Source: Squalus acanthias (lineage: Eukaryota). Taken from it: a stretch of 64,000 nt of DNA. The notes beneath the pieces are model-generated. The model saw only the letters and a program-made list of their open reading frames with translations, made no database searches and was not told where the DNA came from. Position numbers and translations under genes: made by a program. Position 1 is the stretch's first letter; each line of letters begins with the position of its first letter. Of this stretch, positions 2,572 through 26,263 are shown piece by piece. Location: the NCBI GenBank assembly GCA_030390025.1, contig JASTWF010000064.1, positions 372,001-436,000 on the forward strand. The letters are read 5' to 3'.

Positions 2572-3415
2572 CATAGAATCATAGAATGATACAGCACAGA
2601 AGGAGGCCATTCAGTCCATTGTGCCTGTGCTGGCTCTTTGAAAGAGCTATCCAATTAGTCCCATTCCCTATAGCCCGGCAAATTTTCCCCTTCAAGTCTT
2701 TATCCAATTCCATTTTCAAAGTTACTATTGAATCTGCTTCCACCGCCCTTTCAGGCAGCGCATTCCAGATCACAACAACTCGCTGCATAAAATAATTCTC
2801 CTCATCTTGCCTCTGGCTCTTTTGCCAATTACCTTAAATCTGTGTCCTCTGGTCACCGACCCTTCTGCTACTGAGAACAGTTTCTCCTGATTTACTCTAT
2901 CAAAACCTTCATGATTTAGAACACCTCTATTAAATCTCCCCTTAACCTTCTCTGCTCCAAGGAGAAAAACCCCAACATCTCCAGTCTCTCCACATAACTG
3001 AAGTCCCTCATCCCCGGTACCATTCTAGTAAATCTCCTCTGCACCCTCTCCCAGGCCTTGACATCCTTCCTAAAGTGTGGAGCCCAGAAATGGCCAGAAT
3101 ACTCCAGCCCAGGCCTAACTAGTGTTTTATAAAGGTTTAGCCTAACTTCCCTGCTTTTGTACTCTATGTCACTGGTTATAAAGCCAAGGACCCTGTAGCT
3201 TTTTTAACAGCCTTATCGACTTGTCCTGCCACTTTCAAAGATTCTTTCAAAGATTTGTGTACATAAATCCCGAGGCCTCTCTGTTCCTGCACCCTTTAAA
3301 ATTGTACCATTTTGTTTATATTGCCTCTCCTTATTCTTCATTCCAAAAGGCGTCACTTCACACTTCTCTGTGTTAAGTTTCATCTGCCGTGTGTCTGCCC
3401 ATCTCACCAGTCTGT
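2572..3415 (-). mobile_element. CR1 LINE 3' fragment
   Basis: RT C-terminal remnants (QRVVVIWNALP, WADTRQMKLNTEKCEV) and (ATTCTATG)n tail. Confidence 0.85.
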
Positions 3416-4490
3416 CGAATGGAATGTTGGCCTTTATCTCGAGGGCTGGGATACAAAGGGGAGGAAGCTGAGCTTCAGTTGTACCGAGCTCTGGTCAGAC
3501 CCCATCTGGAGCACTGTGTTCAGTTCTGGGCACCGCACCTCAGGAAGGATAGACTGGCCTTGGAGGGGCTGCAGCGCAGATTGACCAGAATGGTACCGGG
3601 GCTTTAAAGGCAGGTTGCTTAAACTTGGCTTGTATTCCCTGGAGTATAGAAAGTTGAGGGGTGATCTAATCGAGATGTTTATAATGTTAGCAGGTTTCGA
3701 TAGGGTAGAAACGGGGAAACTATTCCCTCCAGTGGGCGAATCAAGAAAGAGGGGACATAATCTTAAAATTAGAGCGAGGCCATTTAGGAGTGAAATCAGG
3801 AAGCACATTTTCCACACAAAGGGTAGTAGAAATCTGAACTCTCTCCCCAAAAGCCTGTGGATGTTGAAAGAAAGACTTGCATTTCTATAGCGCCTTTCAC
3901 GACCACTGGACGTCCCAAAGCACTTTACAGCCAATGAAGTACTTTTTGCAGTTGCTGTTGTAAGTAGGAAACGCGGCAGGAAATTATCGCACAGCAAGCT
4001 CCCACAAACAGCAATGTGATAATCACCAGATAATCTGGTTTTGTTCTGTTGATTGAGGGATAAATATTGGCCAGGACACCGGGGATAACTCCCCTACTCT
4101 TCTTCGAAATAGTGCCATGGGATCTTTTACGTCCACCTGAGAGAACAGACGGGGCCTCGGTTTAACATCTAATCCGAAAGACGGCACCTCCGACAGTGCA
4201 GCGCTCCCTCAGTACTGCCCTGGAGTGTCAGCCTAGATTTTTGTGCTCAAGTCTTTGGAGTGGGATTTAAACCCACAACCTTCTGACTCAGAGGCGAGGG
4301 TGCTACCAACAGAGCTACTCGGGACAATGGGAGCTTTTAAGACTGCGATCGATGATTTTTGTTGGGTTAGGGTATTAAAGGATATGGAGCAAAGGCGGGT
4401 AAATGGAGTTGAGGTACAGATCAGCCCTGATCTGATTGAATGGCGGAGCAGGCCCAAGGGGCTGAATGGCCTCCTCCTTTTCCTAATGTT
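3416..4490 (+). mobile_element. CR1 LINE 3' fragment interrupted by a SINE
   Basis: [19 protein letters not shown] and LRGDLIEMF motifs; CR1-type 3' UTR ending near 4490. Confidence 0.85.
3866..4325 (-). mobile_element. tRNA-derived SINE with L2-type tail (DeuSINE/SacSINE1-like)
   Basis: tRNA-like A/B-box head and AAGGCGCTATAGAAATGCAAGTCTTTC tail; same family at 13891-14350 and 32275-32706. Confidence 0.75.
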
Positions 4491-4519
4491 TTTCCCTCTG
4501 TCATGTTCTGTATCAAACT

Positions 4520-4762
4520 ACTTTCAGTTTCTGGTTTAATTATCAAACCTTGTTCAGTTCATCCTACCTGGCGACTCATGATATAGCTCGCAGTATTTCT
4601 CTGATTGGATAGCTCATGATATTGGGAAAGTTTATTTCGACACCGACACAACCTCTCCAGGACTCTTCTACCCGGAGCCTGCTGACTCACAGCCTGTTTT
4701 TATTCTAATTGGACACAAGCATACAGTTGAACCAATCAGTCTGGAGGATTCTGAGTTTAATA
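4520..4762 (+). promoter_or_regulatory. MHC class I promoter with two tandem ISRE-S-X1-X2-Y modules, CCAAT box and TATA-like element
   Basis: Module A: ACTTTCAGTTTCT 4520-4532, AAACCT 4545-4550, CCTGGCGAC 4567-4575, CTGATTGG 4601-4608. Module B: AGTTTATTTC, CAACCT 4649-4654, CCCGGAGCC 4671-4679, TGACTCA 4683-4689, CTAATTGG 4705-4712. Both have 16-bp S-X1 and 25-bp X1-Y spacing. CCAATCAG 4732-4739; TTTAATA 4756-4762. Confidence 0.8.
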
Positions 4763-4985
4763 CAATCAGCACTGGGCACAGTTCACAGACAGAGAGAAGA
4801 CTGGCAGAGAGGGACAGTCCAGGAGGCACGGTATCAGCACTGGGCACAGAGCGACAGTCAGAGAGAAGACGGGCACAGGAATCACACGGTCTCAACTGGG
4901 CACAGCTCACGGATTAAGACGAGACGGTCCCTTGGAAAAGGATTACCCACAAACTGCTCATCCCGGCCTGTCGAGGGAAGCAACA

Positions 4986-5034
4986 ATGATTGGACTGATT
5001 GTGCTGGCCGTTCTGTGTGGAGGGGTCTCTGCAG
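4986..5034 (+). CDS. UAA: MHC class I heavy chain exon 1 (signal peptide MIGLIVLAVLCGGVSA)
   Basis: ATG in ACAATGA context, hydrophobic leader, phase-1 donor G|GTGAGT in frame with exon 2. Confidence 0.9.
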
Positions 5035-5043
5035 GTGAGTCAT

Positions 5044-5272
5044 GGGGTGTGAGAGGGTCTCAGTGCCAGGCTGGGTACTGGGCATTAATCCTCGGTCAGT
5101 GGGTAATGGGGTGTGAGAGGGTCTCAGTGCCAGGCTGGGTACTGGGCATTAACCCTCGGTCAATGGGTAATGGGGTGTGAGAGGGTCTCAGTGCCAGGCT
5201 GGGTACTGGGCATTAACCCTCGGTCAGTGAGTAATGGGGTGTGAGAGGGTCTCAGTGCCAGGCTGGGTACTG
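5044..5272. repeat. ~64-bp intronic VNTR (~4 copies; ~7 in the inverted arm at 12770-13185)
   Basis: Tandem units GGGGTGTGAGAGGGTCTCAGTGCCAGGCTGGGTACTGGGC... Confidence 0.85.
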
Positions 5273-5384
5273 GGGCTGGCGAGGTTGAGACACAATGGGG
5301 TGGGGGGAGGAACTGAGGTCAGGGACACATGAGGCTGGAGACTAAGCGTTAGGGTTATGACACTGGAGAGTGGAGAGGGAGAGA

Positions 5385-6990
5385 GGAACATAGCAACAAG
5401 ATTAGTCTATTCAGCCCCTCGAACCTGTTCCGCCAACCAGTTAGATCACGGCCGATCTGTACCTCAACTCCATTTACGCACCTTTGCTCGATATCGCGTG
5501 ATACTCTGAGCTAAGAAAACACTATCTCAGTTTTGAAAGCTCCAGTTGAGTCTCAACATCCACAGCCTTTTTGGGAGAGATTTCCAGATTTCTACTACCC
5601 TTCGTGTGAAGAAGTGCTTCCTGATTTCCCTCCTAAATGGTCTTGCTCTAATTTGAAGATGATGTCCCCTTGTTCTTGATTGCCCCCCAGAGGGAGTAGT
5701 TTCCCTGTATCTACTCTACCAAACCCTTTTAACATTTTAAACACCTCGATCAGATCACCGTTCAATCTTTGAAACTCGAGAGTATACAAACTAAGTTTAT
5801 ACAATCTGTCCTCATAATTGAACCCTCGAAACCCCAGAATTATTCTGGTGAATCTGCTCTGCACCCTCTCTGTGCCCTGAACTGAACGCAGTGCTCCAGA
5901 TGGGGTCTAACCAGAGCTTTATAGAACTGTAACCGAACTTCCCCACTTTGTATCCCAGTCCTCGAGACAGGCCAACATTCCATGAGCCTTTTTAATTATT
6001 TTTTATCCTTGTCTACTAGCTTTTAGTGATTTCTGTACTTGGAGCCCTAAATCTCTCTGCTCCTCCACAGTTCCCAGCCTCTCACCATTTAGAAAATACT
6101 CTGATCGATCTTTCTTAGGTCCAAAGTGGATGACCTCACACTTTCTCACATTGAACTCCATCTGCCACAGTTTTACCCACACTTAATCTAACGATGTCCC
6201 TTTGCAACTTCCTGCTCACATCTACACAACTTACTGTCCCCATAACTTAGTCTCATCGACAAACTTAGATATACAACTCTCCATTCCTTCATCCAAGTCA
6301 TTTATAAATGTGGTGAAAAGCTGAGGCCCCAGAACAGATCCCTGGGGACACCACTAGTCACATCCCACCAATCAGAGTACCTACCCTTTATCCCCACTCT
6401 CTGTCTCCTACCTCCCAACCAATTTCCAACACAAGTCTAAAGATCACCTCCAATTCCATGCACTCCCATTTTTGCGAAGTCTCTTGTGTGGAACCTTATC
6501 GAATGCCTTCTGGAAATCCATATAAATAACATCTATAGACACTCCCCTATCTATCTGGTTGGTGACCTCCTCAACATAATCAACTAGATGAGTCAGACCT
6601 GACTTACCTTCAACAAAGCCACTCCTCTCTCTGATCAGCTCGTATTTGTTCAAGTGCTCAGTCACTCTGTCCCTAATAACAGATTCTAGTAGCTTCCCAA
6701 ACCCAATGTTAAACTGACTCTCTATAACTCCAACCTTTCTGTCCTCCTCCTGCCTTGGACTGTCTCCTGCTCCATGGTGCCTTGGTCAACATTGTGGCCA
6801 TCCTTCCCACAGCCTTGCTCCTTATCCCCACAGGCAGCAAGCACATCGTACCTGTTGGACAGGACCAGACTCCGTGGTCCCACCTTCCCTGCCTCCACTA
6901 GATTCCCCAACCCTGCTGACCGTCAGTCACACTCCTCCGCCTGAACCTGTACCTCTCTACTTGGTGTGACCGAGATCTGCAGTAAACTAG
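5385..6990 (-). mobile_element. Degenerate, internally deleted CR1 LINE in MHC-I intron 1
   Basis: ORF1 remnant (LSNRYDVLAAC), RT remnant (DVIYMDFQKAFDKVPHKRL), 3' tail near 5390. Confidence 0.85.
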
Positions 6991-7170
6991 GCCCCTCTCC
7001 CTCAGTCCGTCAGTGGGTGGGTTACCCCAGGCCCCTCTCCCTCAGTCTGTCAGTGGGTGGGTGGGTGGGTGGGTTACCCCGGGTCCCTCTCCCTCAGTCT
7101 GTCAGTGGGTGGGTTACCCCAGGCCCCTCTCCCTCAGTCCGTCAGTGGCTGGGTAAGCCCAGGCCCCTCT
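6990..7170. repeat. ~40-bp intronic VNTR (~4 copies; ~10 in the inverted arm)
   Basis: GGCCCCTCTCCCTCAGTCTGTCAGTGGGTGGGTTACCCCA units. Confidence 0.85.
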
Positions 7171-7329
7171 TTCTCAGTCTGGCAGTGATGTTAATGATTG
7201 AATTACAGGGAGTTATGTTAAGTATCTGACCAATGAGATGCTGCATTCAGTCACTCAGCTGGTGATTATTCCCATTGCGTTGTTTAAAAACAACTGGTGT
7301 GACTGGGAGAGGGAGGAGTGGGCCCATGT

Positions 7330-7690
7330 TTCGGCCTATTACTGACGGTGCTCAATGTGACTGGGCCCGAGTCTCGGCCTATTACTGACGGTGCTCAGTG
7401 TGACTGGGCCCGAGTCTCGGCCTATTACTGACGGTGCTCAGTGTGACTGGGCCCGAGTCTCGGCCTATTACTGACGGTGCTCAGTGTGACTGGGCCCGAG
7501 TCTCGGCCTATTACTGACGGTGCTCAGTGTGACTGGGCCCGAGTCTCGGCCTATTACTGACGGTGCTCAGTGTGACTGGGCCCGAGTCTCGGCCTATTAC
7601 TGACGGTGCTCAGTGTGACTGGGCCCGAGTCTTGGCCTATTGCTGACGGTGCTCAGTGTGACTGGGCCCAAGTCTCGGCCTATTGCTGAC
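7330..7690. repeat. 43-bp intronic VNTR (~8 copies; ~14 in the inverted arm at 9860-10480)
   Basis: TCGGCCTATTACTGACGGTGCTCAGTGTGACTGGGCCCGAGTC units. Confidence 0.9.
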
Positions 7691-7704
7691 GATGCTCAGT
7701 GGGA

Positions 7705-8876
7705 CTGGGGCTCTGTTTTGTGTTGGGGTTGATTTCCAGGGGCTCTGTGTTGTGTTGTGTTGGGGTTGATTTCCAGGGGCTCTGTGTTGTGTTGTGTTGG
7801 GGTTGATTTCCAGGGGCTCTGTGTTGTGTTGTGTTGGGGTTGATTTCCAGGGGCTCTGTGTTGTGTTGGGGTTGATTTCCAGGGGCTCTGTGTTGTGTTG
7901 TGTTGGGGTTGATTTCCAGGGGCTCTGTGTTGTGTTGGGGTTGATTTCCAGGGGCTCTGTGTTGTGTTGGGGTTGATTTCCAGGGGCTCTGTGTTGTGTT
8001 GTGTTGGGGTTGATTTCCAGGGGCTCTGTGTTGTGTTGTGTTGGGGTTGATTTCCAGGGGCTCTGTGTTGTGTTGTGTTGGGGTTGATTTCCAGGGGCTC
8101 TGTGTTGTGTTGTGTTGTGTTGGGGTTGATTTCCAGGGGCTCTGTGTTGTGTTGTGTTGGGGTTGATTTCCAGGGGCTCTGTGTTGTGTTGGGGTTGATT
8201 TCCAGGGGCTCTGTGTTGTGTTGTGTTGGGGTTGATTTCCAGGGGCTCTGTGTTGTGTTGTGTCGGGGTTGATTTCCAGGGGCTCTGTGTTGTGTTGGGG
8301 TTGATTTCCAGGGGCTCTGTGTTGTGTTGTGTTGGGGTAGATTTCCAGGGGCTCTGTGTTGTGTTGGGGTTGATTTCCAGGGGCTCTGTGTTGTGTTGGG
8401 GTTGATTTCCAGGGGCTCTGTGTTGTGTTGTGTTGGGGTTGATTTCCAGGGGCTCTGTGTTGTGTTGTGTTGGGGTTGATTTCCAGGGGCTCTGTGTTGT
8501 GTTGTGTTGGGGTTGATTTCCAGGGGCTCTGTGTTGTGTTGTGTTGGGGTTGATTTCCAGGGGCTCTGTGTTGTGTTGGGGTTGATTTCCAGGGGCTCTG
8601 TGTTGTGTTGGTGTTGATTTCCAGGGGCTCTGTGTTGTGTTGTGTTGGGGTTGATTTCCAGGGGCTCTGTGTTGTGTTGGGGTTGATTTCCAGGGGCTCT
8701 GTGTTGTGTTGTGTTGGGGTTGATTTCCAGGGGCTCTGTGTTGTGTTGGGGTTGATTTCCAGGGGCTCTGTGTTGTGTTGTGTTGGGGTTGATTTCCAGG
8801 GGCTCTGTGTTGTGTTGTGTTGGGGTTGATTTCCAGGGGCTCTGTGTTGTGTTGTGTTGGGGTTGATTTCCAGGGG
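7705..8876. repeat. ~32/37-bp GT-rich minisatellite immediately upstream of the exon 2 acceptor
   Basis: GGGGTTGATTTCCAGGGGCTCT(GTGTT)2-4 units. Confidence 0.95.
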
Positions 8877-8906
8877 TTCATGCCATGATGTCTCTCTGTG
8901 TTTCAG

Positions 8907-9167
8907 GCACTCACTCTCTCCGGTATTTCTACACCTGGATGACCCCGATTCCCGGTTTGCCGGAGTTTGTGGTGGTCGGTTATGTGGACGATGCTCAGTT
9001 TGTTCAGTATGACAGCGACCGGAAACAGATGATCCCGCGGCAGCGGTGGATTGAGGAGAGCGAGGACGAACAATACTGGGAGCGGGAGACACAGAACCTG
9101 CGGGGCTCGGAGCAGATTGGGAAGGTCGATATTCAGACCCTCATGACCCGGACCAACCAGACTGGCG
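8907..9167 (+). CDS. UAA: MHC class I heavy chain exon 2 (alpha1 domain), classical/UAA type
   Basis: TTTCAG| acceptor and G|GTGAGT donor; 261 nt; GTHSLRYFYT...PEFVVVGYVDD...YDSD...YWERETQ...RTNQT with Y7, Y59, R84 and the N86 sequon. Confidence 0.95.
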
Positions 9168-9174
9168 GTGAGTC

Positions 9175-9560
9175 CCCGCCCCCCCCCCCCCCCCCCCGTG
9201 TCTCTCTATTCCCCCCCCCCCCGTGTCTCTCTATTCCCCCCCCCCCCCCCGTGTCTCTCTATTCCCCCCCCCCCCCCCGTGTCTCTCTATTCCCCCCACC
9301 CCCCGTGTCTCTCTATTCCCCCCACCCCCCGTGTCTCTCTATTCCCCCCACCCCCCGTGTCTCTCTATTCCCCCCACCCCCCGTGTCTCTCTATTCCCCC
9401 CCCCCCGTGTCTCTCTATTCCCCCCCCCCCCGTGTCTCTCTATTCCCCCCCCCCGTGTCTCTCTATTCCCCCCCCCCGTGTCTCTCTATTCCCCCCCCCC
9501 CCCGTGTCTCTCTATTCCCCCCCCCGTGTCTCTCTATTCCCCCCCCCGTGTCTCTCTATT
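9175..9560. repeat. C-rich minisatellite (Cn-GTGTCTCTCTATT) in intron 2
   Basis: Tandem units running into the gap. Confidence 0.9.
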
Positions 9561-9760
9561 NNNNNNNNNNNNNNNNNNNNNNNNNNNNNNNNNNNNNNNN
9601 NNNNNNNNNNNNNNNNNNNNNNNNNNNNNNNNNNNNNNNNNNNNNNNNNNNNNNNNNNNNNNNNNNNNNNNNNNNNNNNNNNNNNNNNNNNNNNNNNNNN
9701 NNNNNNNNNNNNNNNNNNNNNNNNNNNNNNNNNNNNNNNNNNNNNNNNNNNNNNNNNNNN
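9561..9760. other. Assembly gap (200 N)
   Basis: Run of N. Confidence 1.
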
Positions 9761-13463: not shown

Positions 13464-13696
13464 TATGAAACTCAGAATCCTCCACACTGATTGGTTCGAC
13501 TGTATGCTTGTGTCCAATTAGAATAAAAACAGGCTGTGAGTCAGCAGGCTCCGGGTAGAAGAGTCCTGGAGAGGTTGTGTCGGTGTCGAAATAAACTTTC
13601 CCAATATCATGAGCTATCCAATCAGAGAAATACTGCGAGCCATATCATCAGTTGCCAGGTAGAATGAACTGAACAATTAAACCAGAAACTGAAAGT
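13464..13696 (-). promoter_or_regulatory. Second MHC class I promoter (double SXY; distal S box absent)
   Basis: Mirror of 4520-4762; lacks ATCAAACCTT; distal X1 is CCTGGCAAC; TATA-like element is TTTCATA. Confidence 0.75.
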
Positions 13697-19030: not shown

Positions 19031-20743
19031 ACCGCCGACAATTTCAACAGCAACAAGAACCAAGGAGTGACGTCACAGCACAGCAGGTAGGTGATTGGTG
19101 GGTGAGTATTAACGCTGTTTCTCTGTAACCTGGGACAGTGGCTTAAACCAGGAGCGGGAAACTATAACGCACTTCATTAAATTTATAACTTAACCAGTTA
19201 AACTAATTAATATAACTATAAATAGTCATTGAATAAAGATTTTAACTAATTAAATAAATAAAAGAAGGTTAGACTAAGGTTTGGCAGGGCAGGTTGTGTG
19301 TCTGGACTGCAGTCTGTGGACAGCGAGACTGTCCCGAGCGAACACGTCTGCAGGAGATGTCTCCGTCTCGAATCTCTCCGGCTCAGAGTCATTGAGCTGA
19401 GTGCGAGTTGGAGACACTCCGACACGTGAGGGAGGGGGAAGAGTATCTGGACAGTTTGCTCCAGACCTCGGTTATACCTCGTAGAGAGGTGCAGGATCAG
19501 AACGGGATCGAGTTCAAAGCGTTTGAAAGGGAGAAATGCAAAACAGCTACTAAGATTCTAGATTTAGGTAAGACCGACTTCAATGGGATGAGGCAGAGAC
19601 TGTCCACAGTAAACTGGGCAAATCTGTTAATGGGTAAAATGACAAAAGATCAGTGGGAGATGTTTAAAAAAAAAGAACCAGTTTATACCCCTGAGTGGCA
19701 AGAACTCAACTTGCCAAAAAAAACAGCCGTGGACGACTAAAGAGGTAAGAGACAACATAAAACTAAAGGAAAGGGCATACAAAAATGCAAAAAATAGCAC
19801 AGATCCTGACGAATGGGAAAGATAGAAAGAACAGCAAAGGGTCACAAATCAGACAGTAAGAGCTACAAAAGGGAGTATGGAAAGAAACTTGCAAGGCCTA
19901 TTAAAATCAATACGAAGAATTTTTATAGCTACATGAGGAAAAAGAGGGTGGTCAGGAGCAATGTTGGCCCCTTAAAAACTGATAACGGTGATATTGTCAA
20001 TGACAATGGGGAAATGGCGGACATGTTGAATAATTACTTTGTGTCAGTATTTACAGTAGAAGAAGAGGATAGCATGCCGGAAATCCCAAAGAAACTAATA
20101 TTGAATCGGGGACAGGGACTCAATAAAATGAATGTAGGTAAAATAACAGTAATGAAGAAAATAATGCCACTAAAGAGTGACAAATCCCCAGGGCCAGATG
20201 GTTTCCATCCCAGGGTTTTAAAGTATGTAGGTGAGAACATTGCAGATGCCCTAACTATAATCTTCCAAAGTTCTCTAGATTCAGGAATGGCCCGGATATT
20301 CCGCTCGGAGGCTTCCCGCGGGCAGAAGCCCCTGACCTGCAAAAAAGAACCGCACGGACCTTAATGCTCTGGGCCCACGTAAACTTCCGTTGTAATCCTG
20401 AGGACTCCTGGGCAGCGTATGACGTCACGCCACCCAGGAGCACAGCGTGTGCGGAGCCTAGGGCTTCACGTGTAGGGGAGACCCGCCCTCAAAAGTTATA
20501 TTTGCATAGGCCACGCCCCCGATTATTTTCAACTCTTCAGAAGCATTGGCAACTGAAAGTAGCTGCAAAACTCAATGGTAAGTTGTTTCTTTATAGTTTT
20601 TTGAATCTTTTGTAAACTTTTAAAGACTTTTACATAGATTTGAAGAATCTTAAATAGTTTTAAAGAGATTTGAAGCAATTTAAAGAGTTTTAAAAGCCCT
20701 GAAAACATTTTTTTCATTCATTTTAATTAATGAGCAAAGTGAA

Positions 20744-21203
20744 ATGGAAGGACTGAGCACAATTCGCATGATTAAGAGAGCTCAGAATTTCAGTGACCAT
20801 GACATCAGCACACTCCTCAATGAGGTTGAGGTGAAGTGCCTGTGGATCCTTGGGAATGAGAAGTCCAGGGCGCCGCGCAAAGGACAGATGACAGCTTGGT
20901 CAGAAGTTGCCCAGGCTGTCAGCGCGAACTCCACCATTCCACGGACAGCGGAACAATGCCATTACTTTGACTCCCGCAGAACCGCCCTTACCTGCTCCCA
21001 GCGCAGACACAGTGCAGGCCCATGAGACAGCAGCTCCGCCAATCCTGATGCAAGCAAACGTTGCCTTTCAGCAGCAGCAGCAGCAGCAGCAGCAGCCCTG
21101 TCAGGAGGCAATTGCTGAAGGGCAAGAGATGGCACACAGGGGCCTTTCAATTGGCAGCAGAGGGCTCCGGTCACGGGGAAGGGGAAAGCGCAGGAGACAG
21201 TAG
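20744..21203 (+). pseudogene. Harbinger Myb/SANT-like (trihelix) DNA-binding protein, internally deleted/frameshifted
   Basis: KRAQNFSDHDISTLLNEV...AWSEVAQAVSA...RTAEQC, then loss of the expected RKKW helix; polyQ and basic tail in another frame. Confidence 0.7.
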
Positions 21204-21714
21204 GGTGTCACCTTTGCACAATCCACATCCTTTGACCCTCAGGCACAGATACGAGGGGGCAAATCGTTCAATTCTTTCATGTTTCGTTTTATTTAAATGT
21301 TAAATGGTGTCGTTGCTTTTTTTTATTGAAATATATATTTGTGACTGAAAGTGTATGTAACCGTTTTGTTTAAAAAGTACAGCCTCTAGTCACTTTGAAA
21401 AAAATGTCAACTCTTTTATTTGCAAAGATATTTAAAATTACAACTGTTTGAAAATTAGAAAATAGCTCGTTTCCATCTTGAATGTCTTTATTGCACTAAG
21501 AAACCAAAAAAGTCACTTTAAACTGTTTACAAATTTTATTTAAAAAAAATTATGTTTGCGAAGGTTTGAAAAGTAGAAAATAACATTTAAAAGTTAAAAA
21601 CTGAACCTCAAAAGTCTTTGATGCTGCAATAAAAGTTCACTGTTTCACTTTAAATTGTGTCTGTTCCTTTCTTTGCCTTGCTGGGGGAGGGGGAGGTACA
21701 AGGCGAGACTATCA

Positions 21715-22860
21715 TCACCTCGTGAAGGTGTTGGCTACTAGCAGTTCCCGAGCAGCCGTACTTTCGGCAGCACTTGGCTCCTCCCCATCAGGCCTGGCCA
21801 CAGGCACATTGGCATCGTCCATGTCCTCCATTTCAGCAGGGAGCTCCTCTGCAGGGTTAAAGGTCAGTCCGACCCGCAGGGCAAAGTTATGCAAAGCACA
21901 ACAGGCCACCACAATCCTTGGCACTTTCAGAGGAGAATACTGCAAGGTCCCCCCTGACCTGTCCAGGCACCGGAAGCATGATTTCAGAACCCCGATTGTC
22001 CTCTCCACCACTTGCCGTGTGGACACGTGTGCCTGGTTGTGTCTCTCCTGAGCCTCATTATTGGTCTTGCGGTAGGGAGTCATCAGCCATGGTCTTAGCG
22101 GGTAGCCCTTGTCGCCCAATATCCATGCGGATCCTGGAGGCAATGTGCTGAGGGCGCCATATAAGTCCGAGTTACGGAGGACGAAGGAGTCATGAGCACT
22201 TCCCCGGTGCTCTGCATTCACGTTTAGGATCCTGAGGTGCGCATCACAGACTATCATGACATTCAATGAATGAAACCCCTTCCTGTTGATGTATGTCACA
22301 GGTGCATCCAGTGGTGCCTTCAATGCAACATGGGTTCCATCGACAGCCCCAATCACTTTGGGGAATCCAGCAATGGTATAAAATGCAAGGGCCATCTCCT
22401 TTTGATGGCGTGTGGACAAGTCAAAGTCCATGAACTCTGAAGCCCTACGGAAAATGGCATCTGTGACCTGGTGAATGCAGGCCAATGCAGCACTCTGGGA
22501 GATGTTGGTAATGTCACCGGTGCCTGCCTGAAATAACCCACTTGCAAAGAAGTTCAGCGCTGTGGTTACCTTCATGTTCACTGACAAGGCAGTGCGGGTC
22601 TTCGAGCGTGTTTGAAGGTCCTCCTTTAACATGTCACATAGTCGGCCGATTGCCTCTTTACTGAAGCGCAGCCTCCTCACACACAACTCCGACAGCATCT
22701 CAAATGACAGCCTCTCCCTGTACACTCTCTGCGGTGGGTAATAGTTCCTCCTGATCAGGAGACGGTGATGGTTCCTCGGTCTTCTTTGTTGTTCCCTGGC
22801 GTTTCCAATTCTCTGATGCACAATTGCACCGAGGATCAAGGCAACATCGTCAAAGGGCAT
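21715..22860 (-). CDS. Harbinger (HARBI1-like) DDE transposase, 381 aa, uninterrupted
   Basis: GAVDGTHV, HDSFVL, LGDKGYPL, RQVVERTIG and CCALHNF motifs. Confidence 0.93.
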   Translation of the reverse strand: MPFDDVALILGAIVHQRIGNAREQQRRPRNHHRLLIRRNYYPPQRVYRERLSFEMLSELCVRRLRFSKEAIGRLCDMLKEDLQTRSKTRTALSVNMKVTTALNFFASGLFQAGTGDITNISQSAALACIHQVTDAIFRRASEFMDFDLSTRHQKEMALAFYTIAGFPKVIGAVDGTHVALKAPLDAPVTYINRKGFHSLNVMIVCDAHLRILNVNAEHRGSAHDSFVLRNSDLYGALSTLPPGSAWILGDKGYPLRPWLMTPYRKTNNEAQERHNQAHVSTRQVVERTIGVLKSCFRCLDRSGGTLQYSPLKVPRIVVACCALHNFALRVGLTFNPAEELPAEMEDMDDANVPVARPDGEEPSAAESTAARELLVANTFTR

Positions 22861-24242
22861 GTTTCTCCCTCACAGGCTTCCTCTTCAAACAGATGAAGTA
22901 CTTGTAAGGAAAAAATGGAAAGAGTTGTAAAATTAATTTTAATAAAGTGAGTGGCTAGAAAATCAGGTCGGGCTATGGTGGGAAACGTGTGGTATCGGAT
23001 TGGGAACACGTCATACCCGCCTGATGAATATCACGGCCCGAGATGATTTTCTAAGAACTTTAACATTTTCACAAAGTCATACCTACAATTTTTAAAGGGC
23101 ATGGAAAAGTTAACATATAACTAATTGATATTTTCTGGCATAATTTTTTAAAACTTCAGTAAATGTTAAAGAATTCATTTTTAAACAGTCATTTTCACAT
23201 TTAAGAAAATGAAATTTAATTCAATAGAATGATTACCTTGCACACAGCAAGAGTTGCTCTTTATAACTACACTACTCAAAACAAGATCCAAAACCATTTT
23301 TAACAAATTAAAGTTGATAAAAACTTACCTCAGACTTTCTACAAAGAACTTTGCTCACTTTCACAATTAAAAATGTTCCCTTTCCAAGCCCCCTGCTGAA
23401 AAAGTTCTTCTTCCTGGAGCTTCTTCCGGTAGAATGCTGGCTGTACACCTGCTTTTACTGGGTGCAGCTGTTTCAGACGTACCTGGACTGAAGCATTTGA
23501 GAAAAAATCGGAACATTGAGCTGGTAGCGCTGCCTATCCTGCGCATGCGTTTGATCTGTCAAAGCCCTTTCTTGACAGATCGGAAATGCCGGTTTCCAGC
23601 GCATGCGCTGTGCATGCCTGAAACCGGCATTTCCGATGTCCCTATGGGTGAGTACACAGCGCGTACCCACCCGTAGGGATCGGAATATCCGGGCCAATGC
23701 CACTAAAGAGTGACAAATTCCCAGGGCCAGATGGTTTCCAGCCCAGGGTTTTAAAGTATGTAGGTGAGAACATTGCAGATGCCCTAATTCTAATCTTCCA
23801 AAGTTCTCTCGATTCAGGAACCATCCCTTTAGATTGGAAAATTGCGCATGACACTCCACTTTTTAAGAATGGTGAGAAAGGGAAACCAGAGAATTATAGA
23901 TCAGTTAGCCTAATATCTGTTGTGGTAAATTGTTAGAGTCTATAATTAAGGATAGGGTGATTGAATACTTAGAAAATGTTCAGTTGATCAGAGAGAACTG
24001 GCATGGATTTGTAAAAGGTAGGTCATGCCTGACAAACCTGACTGAATTTTTTGAGGAGGTGACTAAAGTAGTGGACAGAGGAATGTCTATGGATGTTATT
24101 TATATGGACTTCCAGAAGGCATTTGATAAAGTCCCTCATAAGAGACTGTTACCTAAGGTAGAAGCCCATGGAGTTGAGAGCAAATTATTGACCAAGTTAG
24201 GAATTCGGCTGAGCGGCAGGAGAGAGAGAGTAGGGATAATGG

Positions 24243-26263
24243 AGGTCTAGCAGCTAGCCGACAACCACGACGTGCGTGGATTCTTTAAGACCACCTACGG
24301 CCCAAGCACCCATGCTCCTACCCCACTGTGGGCCAAGAATGGAGAGGTAGTCATCAAGGACAGAGAGGCAGTCAGTGCTCGCTGGAAGGAGCACTTCGAA
24401 GATCTCCTTAACCGAGACTCTGTCTTCAATGCGAGTGTCCTCAACTCCATCCCGCAGCATGCTACCCGTCACCACCTCAGCACAATCCCAGCCCGGCATG
24501 AGGTTGAAAAGGCCATCCGACAACTGAAGAACAACAAGGCCTCAGGAGCAGATGGAATCCCCGCCGAGACACTAAAGCATGGTGGAGAAGCACTATTGGC
24601 GTGAATACATGAACTCATTTCTCTTATTTGGAAGGAGGAGAGCATGCCAGCAGATCTCAGAGACACCGTAATCGTGTCCATCTTCAAGAAAGATGACAAG
24701 TCCGATTGTGGTAATTACAGTGGAGTTTCCCTGCTGTCTGCCACAGGGAAAGTCATTGCAAGAATCCTCCTCAATCGCCTTCTCCCAGTGGCTGAAGAGC
24801 TCCTTCCAGAGTCGCAATATGGATTCCGCCCACTAAGGGGCACAATGGACATGATCTTCACTGCGCGTCAAATACAAGAGAAATGCAGGGAACAGCACCA
24901 ACTGCTGTACATGGGCTTCTTTGACCTCACAAAGGCCTTCGACACTGAGGGATTATGGAGTGTCCTCCTCAAATTCGGCTGCCCTCAAACGTTTGTCACC
25001 TCTGCCTGCTTCACGATGACATGCAAGCCATGATCCTGACCAACGGATCCACCACAGACCCAATTCACATACGGACCGGAGTCAAGCAAGGCTGTGTCAT
25101 CGCATCAATGCTCTTCTCGATCTTCCTGGCTGCAATGCTCCATCTCACCCTCAGTAAGCTCCCCGCTGGAGTAGAGATAATTTACAGAACAAACGGGAAA
25201 CTGTTCAACCTCCGTCGCCTCCAGCCCAGATCCAAGGTTGTCCCATCCTCTGTCATCAAATTACAGTATGCAGACGACGCTTGCGTCTGCGCACACTCTG
25301 AGGTCAACCTCCAAACCATCGTCAACACCTTCACCAAAGCGTACGAGAACATGGGCATTACACTAAACATGCATAAGACAAAGGTCCTCTACCAACCTGC
25401 CCCCGCCACACATTACTGCTCCCCGATTATCAAAATCCATGATGAGGCCTTGACAACGTGGACCACTTTCCATACCTCAGGAGCCTACTGTCAACAAGGG
25501 CAGACGTCGATGACGAAGTCCAACACCGCCTTCAGTGTGCCAGTGCAGCCTTCGTTCGCCTGAGGAAGAGAGTGTTTGAAGATCAGGACATCAAACCTGG
25601 CACCAAGCTCATGGTCTACAGAGCAGTAGTGATACCCGCCCTCCTGTATGCTTCAGAGACATGGACCATGTACAGCAGGCACCTCAAAGCACTGGAGAGG
25701 TACCACCAACGCTGCCTCCGCAAGATCCTGCAAATCCACTGGCAGGATAGGCGCACCAACGTCAGTGTTCTCATTCAGGCCAACATCCCCAGTATCAAAG
25801 CTTTGACCACGCTCGATCAGCTCCGATGGACGGGCCACATCGTCTGCATGCCCGATCCGAGACTCCCAAAACAAGCGCTCTACTCGGAGCTCTGACACGG
25901 CAAGAGAGCCCCAGGTGGGCAGAGGAAATGCTTCAAGAACACCCTCAAAGCCTCCTTGAAAAAGTGCAACATTCCCACCGACACCTGGGAATTCCTGGCC
26001 CAAGACCGCTCAAAGTGGAGGAGAAGCATCCGGGAAGGCGCCGAACACCTCGACTCTCTTCGCCGGGAGCAAGCGGAAGCCAAGTGCAAGCAGCGGAAGG
26101 AGTGCACGTCAACCCAAGCACCCCACCCACCCGCCCCTTCAACCACCATCTGCCCCACCTGTGACAGAGACTGTAGGTCCCGCATTGGACTCATCAGTCA
26201 CCTGCAAACTCATTTTTAGTGTGGAAGCAAGTCATCTTCCGTTCCGAGGGACTGTCTAAGAAG
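24243..26263 (+). mobile_element. RTE-clade (BovB-like) LINE, 5'-truncated, frameshifted
   Basis: NNKASGADGIPAE, GVKQGCVI, LQYADD, HFPYL, C-terminal CPTC...H; (AAG) tail; short AATGG duplication. Confidence 0.85.

Follow-up and report, generated by a model that had tools for sequence, protein, structure and literature searches.

A shark MHC class I gene has in its promoter two S-X1-X2-Y modules in tandem, a distal module A and a proximal module B, which share one orientation and represent a real tandem class I SXY arrangement, a variation on known SXY promoters. The pair was identified in a 64,000-nt stretch of Squalus acanthias DNA (hereafter the window), approximately 230-470 bp upstream of an ATG at position 4986 of the window, and its offset of 104 bp, described in an earlier note on this DNA, is exact in this first of two promoter copies (copy 1). 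Module A comprises an S box of class I type, AAACCT, at 4545-4550 (+), followed by three elements assigned by motif reading on the same strand: an RFX half-site as X1 (4561-4575), an X2, TGATATA, which is not a CRE in this lineage (4579-4585), and an inverted CCAAT, CTGATTGG, as Y box (4601-4608). Module B (4649-4712, +) comprises S CAACCT at 4649-4654, X1 at 4665-4679, X2 TGACTCA at 4683-4689 and Y ATTGG at 4708-4712, and both modules follow the spacing S-10-X1(15)-3-X2(7)-18-ATTGG. A strict pattern scan also located an ISRE/IRF site for module A at 4520-4531 (+); this site and its counterpart in copy 2 are the sole strict matches in the window, against 0.33 expected. An ISRE-like motif had been ascribed to each module, which holds for A. 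The stretch before module B contains a weak, non-canonical ISRE-like remnant (4629-4638, +) that agrees with A's ISRE at 2/12 positions in register, and since no strict match occurs upstream of its S box, an ISRE in module B was dropped.

Judged from its coding sequence, the gene downstream is a shark MHC class I gene, in agreement with the earlier reading of this region as a shark-type class I promoter. Exon 1 (4986-5034, +) encodes a leader peptide, MIGLIVLAVLCGGVSA, that matches three shark class I leaders at 88-94% by tblastn, and exon 2 (8907-9167, +) encodes a class I alpha-1 domain, as identified by Pfam MHC_I (PF00129, E 4.7e-26), the nurse shark class I chain of PDB 6lup (E 8e-37) and protein matches, including 85% identity to a Squalus acanthias class I protein. 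Both exons have class I character, and their splice sites are intact. Residues Y6, Y56 and R81 of the alpha-1 query are invariant in 12/12 aligned sequences, and we take them to be the peptide-anchor residues Y7, Y59 and R84. A classical-type (UAA-like) gene is likely, and is rated no higher because an N gap at 9561-9760 interrupts the gene and no alpha-2 or alpha-3 exon was found in the 64-kb window. Minisatellites of 64, 40, 43, 37 and 26 bp occur in introns 1 and 2 (5035-9547), and wherever both copies of the gene can be compared, their copy numbers are unequal.

Further along the window, an intact 381-codon DDE transposase frame (21715-22860, -; PF13359, E 1.7e-41), presumably Harbinger-like, belongs to an element that interrupts LINE-like sequence at about 20290-23700, and a broken reverse-transcriptase element (24240-26260, +; PF00078) is nested in another LINE-like sequence. 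A tandem array occupies 41244-64000, with units of 1-1.5 kb that combine a 42-bp minisatellite with a dispersed-repeat fragment of about 610 bp; a higher-order period, of roughly 5.2 kb, may be superimposed on these units.

The promoter is bounded upstream by a dispersed repeat (4341-4495) that stops just short of the promoter elements; this repeat, presumably a LINE 3' tail, has 16 other blastn matches in the window, one of them in the inverted copy, and its flank also appears in loose contig ends of three runs from relatives (X17, X19 and X21). A kB pattern was without match at 4300-5100, including the interval between the repeat and module A, and a kB enhancer A near the promoter was therefore dropped. 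Downstream of module B, a motif scan identified a CCAAT box (4732-4736) and a TA-rich putative TATA element (4755-4761; together 4732-4761, +), the latter differing in copy 2 and in one paralog contig. Another ATTGG, the third, lies at 4621-4625; paralog contigs carry a change there (4624 G>T, among the differences listed), and it was set aside. The likely 5' UTR (4765-4925) is made of degenerate 56-69-bp repeats.

The doubling of A and B goes beyond chance. Identity between the modules is 26/36 in the boxes (S, X1, X2 and Y) and 7/28 in the spacers, consistent with the earlier description of boxes and spacing kept between diverged spacers, and amounts to 33/64 over the ungapped 64-nt S-to-Y core. 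Only four of 127,872 window positions, counted over both strands, reach this value, namely A itself, B and the two equivalents in the inverted copy, such that B is the best non-self match to A's core; of 2000 dinucleotide-shuffled versions of the 500 nt preceding B, 6 also reach it. The pattern ACCT-28-TGA-22-ATTGG, which by eye also suits mouse H2-K as given in PMC4374748, has three matches over both strands of the window, at modules A and B in copy 1 and at module B in copy 2, and not one in 30 shuffles. Neither Tandem Repeats Finder nor a repeat finder called the two modules a repeat, in line with their identity of 52%. The boxes are short, their consensus is loose and the limits of A's boxes were set with knowledge of B, which would favour a chance likeness of module A; with the match rank and shuffle counts against it, as well as conservation of A in paralogs, we consider this very improbable.

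The doubling is likely old, since the A-B spacers have fallen to background identity. This age estimate draws on the saturated spacers and on paralogs rather than on distant species, because all organisms compared were close relatives. The shared spacing is in itself no proof of a duplication origin, as function alone can fix spacing. Module A might instead have arisen separately from B, as an X-Y/IRF enhancer of the sort dispersed across the MHC that happens to lie unusually near the promoter, or might serve a second start site as its platform, as the lack of likeness between the spacers (7/28) and the second S-Y enhancers known at HLA-DRA (PMC2677874) would allow. Against this, A lies immediately adjacent to B in the same orientation with its S box in the same register, and a search for a CCAAT or TATA-like element after A found none; we regard this origin as doubtful.

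A second copy of the promoter, missed by the earlier note, was also identified: the segment at about 3041-7762 (+), comprising promoter, exon 1 and intron 1, recurs inverted at 15418-9791 (-), and its divergence varies by segment, being lowest in the intron (0.5%) and highest in the promoter (3.6%). At the N gap each copy passes into repeats, so that the inverted one could represent either a paralog or a haplotype placed wrongly in the assembly. The stretch from the shared part to a 40-bp satellite farther upstream is about 2.9 kb longer in copy 1. The double module of copy 2 (13514-13696, -) has kept module B whole and, from module A, the ISRE together with X and Y, but A's S box has gone with a 10-bp deletion (4540-4549 versus 13676/13677). 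Within 4496-4727 the copies are separated by six substitutions and this deletion, all within the first 90 nt, and the 142 nt at 4586-4727, spanning Y-A and all of B, are identical, with S-B being CAACCT in both. The deletion is likely derived, since it is carried by none of the eight contigs from relatives that bridge the site, contigs being assemblies that drop rare variants. It measures about one helical turn, lies between TT repeats and would leave the helical phase between the ISRE and X1-A unaltered.

Relatives were surveyed through six sequencing runs of six coded organisms, drawn from 24 runs of nine organisms, all compared organisms being close relatives; for one comparison 40 of 112 differences are listed, 55 contig rows lie outside the listing, and differences near contig ends are unlisted. 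Module A was present in 5/6 runs (organisms A, C, E, G and H), and the sixth, X18 (organism F), yielded no contig on 4495-4650, which is no proof of absence. The S-to-Y core of A was gap-free in eight contigs from five runs, four near-identical to the window and four of a second lineage, and three promoter lineages (P1, P2 and P3) were recognised in total, with module A in all of them. P1 differs from the window by 1-5 letters over 185-227 nt without gaps and was found in organisms C, E, G and H, with shorter pieces in A. P2 (organisms A, E, G and H) is about 12% diverged, with changes at ISRE core base 4529 and S-A base 4548 and three 1-nt gaps at S-B; its contigs are apparently one 5' UTR repeat unit shorter (joint 4740 to 4808). 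P3 aligns only around Y-A and is too diverged upstream to align at 80%, yet its loose ends (X16 and X19) retain the X1 core followed by a CRE-like X2, and in one P3 contig (X19 record 3) a loose end shows three extra letters between X2 and Y of A. Contig depth differs between the lineages and was given no weight, as depth is not a measure of copy number. Metagenome contigs contained no exact match to the A-type X-Y pattern, and no relatives were present among 31 metagenome pattern matches tested with a shark class I alignment.

These lineages differ in several features of both modules. The X2 of A is TGATATA in the window (3/7 versus mouse class I H2-K), Eb-like in P2 (6/7 versus mouse class II H2-Eb) and CRE-like in P3, the mouse sequences having been taken from the primer list of PMC4374748 and all comparisons with them made by eye against one promoter per class. 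Through indels between or within the modules, the offset changes to 101 bp in P2 and to 105 bp in a P3-type contig; the notion of a fixed helical phasing of about ten turns, advanced earlier, was dropped in view of these offsets of 101-105 bp. Position 4577 carries a change private to copy 1, from which all contigs differ there. Among the differences listed, S-B is mostly CAAACT (4652 C>A) in the contigs of X17, X19 and X21, and in copies of this kind the more mouse-like S box is that of A. Also among the differences listed, Y-B is mostly CTGATTGG (4707 A>G) in three relatives' runs, and as the majority Y of module B there, this sequence was dropped as a mark of module A alone.

Comparing P1 with P2, the boxes of A changed at 7/42 positions and its spacers at 11/48 (p 0.32, boxes defined beforehand), such that this comparison gave no sign of stronger selection on the boxes of A than on its spacers; changes seen in all three runs numbered 6/42 in the boxes and 5/48 in the spacers. 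A subset chosen post hoc, the X core (3' half of X1) together with Y, had one change in 24 positions versus 17 in 66 elsewhere (p 0.018), and Y-A with its flank (4595-4612) was without change in any sequence seen, among the differences listed. The S boxes appear labile in both modules, which fits mutual redundancy. Of the old, selected double architecture originally proposed, the age finds support in the background identity of the spacers, and persistence in the presence of A in three lineages, whereas a constraint on boxes over spacers does not emerge.

These observations bear on whether module A, although once selected, is now a dispensable relic that an old duplication left to decay, with B alone (perhaps together with the ISRE) running the gene. 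Such decay would account for the deletion of S-A in copy 2 by exactly 10 bp, the non-CRE X2-A of the window lineage, the private change of copy 1, the altered ISRE-A and S-A of P2, the one contig with spacing extended by three, and boxes in A that are no more constrained than its spacers. Conversely, an A-B identity of 26/36 in the boxes with spacers at background requires long selection on both modules, Y-A and its flank did not change among the differences listed, and the X1 core was kept even in the lineage whose upstream part no longer aligns at 80%. We therefore consider a relic unlikely, if less so than the other alternatives weighed here.

The earlier note had also typed module A as class II and module B as class I, and had suggested that they might be separate CIITA- and NLRC5-responsive units. 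By eye, and with one mouse promoter per class, the X region of A matches H2-Eb at 15/25 and H2-K at 12/25 in copy 1, and at 18/25 and 15/25, respectively, in copy 2, whereas that of B matches H2-Eb at 13/25 and H2-K at 18/25. The X regions lean in the direction of this typing, and the S boxes both belong to class I: AAACCT in A and CAACCT in B are of the NAACCT type of H2-K, and a GGACCT-type class II S box was not found in module A, where by eye the match is 4/6 to H2-Eb and 5/6 to H2-K. For mouse NLRC5, the X box of H2-Eb serves as well as that of H2-K, the S region of H2-K is necessary and sufficient, and a hybrid (hybrid 4) with an H2-Eb backbone and the H2-K S region is activated by NLRC5 (PMC4374748). 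Module A, which in copy 1 and its near-identical relatives joins an ISRE, an NAACCT-type S, X and Y at H2-K spacing, would by its class II-like X and Y resemble this hybrid and would not be CIITA-only, provided that the mouse rules apply to sharks, as we infer.

A division of labour, with A as a CIITA-responsive class II-type unit and B as an NLRC5-responsive class I-type unit, would draw on the opposite leanings of the two X regions by eye, on the 6/7 match of X2-A in P2 to H2-Eb, and on the separation of the two X types across lineages. That lean consists of just 3-5 bases in 25, however, and NLRC5 specificity is not set by the X boxes in mouse (PMC4374748). Further, S-A is of class I type, the class II-type Y CTGATTGG also occurs in module B of relatives, and in three relatives the majority of contigs have lost the ACCT core of S-B (4652 C>A, among the differences listed). 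With both S boxes of class I type, and the S region rather than X being decisive for NLRC5 in mouse, the proposed split is unsupported and we consider it improbable.

Comparison with known systems places the shark pair closest to class I promoters. The mouse H2-K SXY module, bound by RFX, CREB/ATF, NF-Y and NLRC5 (Ludigs 2015, PMC4374748), has the same S-10-X1(15)-3-X2(7)-18-ATTGG spacing as both shark modules, and has in common with them an NAACCT-type S and, with the shark promoter as a whole, an upstream ISRE; shark module B matches it by eye at 39/64 ungapped with the same spacing. It differs in that the shark promoter has two modules in tandem where mouse H2-K has one, an ISRE before the distal one and no kB enhancer A nearby. 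The CIITA-bound S-Y module of mouse H2-Eb (PMC4374748) resembles module A in X1-link-X2 (by eye 15/25, or 18/25 for copy 2) and in CTGATTGG, unlike A it has GGACCT as its S box and an X2-to-Y spacer of 17 rather than 18, and the gene downstream of A is of class I. Second S-Y modules are known kilobases away from class II genes (PMC2677874), among them the S'-Y' enhancer of HLA-DRA, likewise an extra module upstream of the promoter one and more weakly occupied there; it belongs to a class II gene and lies about 2.3 kb ahead of it, whereas shark A lies 104 bp upstream of B within a class I promoter and so lacks the kilobase distance of a distal enhancer. The salmonid UBA promoter (PMC1971071) contains an ISRE, W/S, site alpha/X2 and enhancer B and differs between alleles, and unlike the shark pair has no second module described in the accessible text. 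An SXY module has also been reported in an opossum class I promoter (PMC1351924), extra Y motifs at H2-T10/T22 (PMC4374748), and an importance of X-Y spacing for CIITA function (PMC4381081), while in a salmon cell line IRF1 and STAT1, not the enhanceosome, were argued to drive induction (PMC7573153). A literature search limited to openly accessible main text turned up neither a described shark class I promoter nor a class I promoter with SXY modules in tandem.

We give about an even chance to an explanation in which an old doubling has left B as the core module and A as a partly redundant, IRF-coupled RFX/NF-Y booster. From its motifs, module B would be the core platform for RFX, CREB/ATF (or AP-1) and NF-Y next to the CCAAT box and, by analogy with the S-Y module of HLA-DRA, which also positions the start site (PMC2677874), B and the downstream CCAAT may together set the start of transcription, which we estimate would lie near 4785. 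Module A would bind RFX and NF-Y as a second platform, given that the 3' half of X1 and the Y box are its steadiest parts, and the IRF site at 4520-4531, the promoter's only good interferon site, would work through A, raising basal or interferon-induced output. Both modules would serve one start site and the same co-activator(s), and their redundancy would let either S box drift.

In a further and quite unlikely scenario, class I promoters of jawed vertebrates would originally have had the double module, as two functional enhanceosomes that differ in X type, and mammals would have come by their single module through a collapse that joined the ISRE and S of A to the X, Y and CCAAT of B. Its lead is that H2-K is closer to A in S and the S-X spacer (12/16, versus 6/16 for B) and closer to B from X1 to Y (33/48, versus 22/48 for A), in counts made post hoc and by eye on one mouse promoter.

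Should A prove dispensable, the arrangement would reduce to an ordinary promoter doubling. SXY spacing is common to the base to a shark and a mouse class I promoter, and the natural variants identified here, with S-A deleted, X2 as CRE or non-CRE, and S-B weakened, would provide ready test alleles. The promoter may serve as a natural construct for investigating what the S and X boxes add to the choice between NLRC5 and CIITA in the oldest lineage with an MHC.
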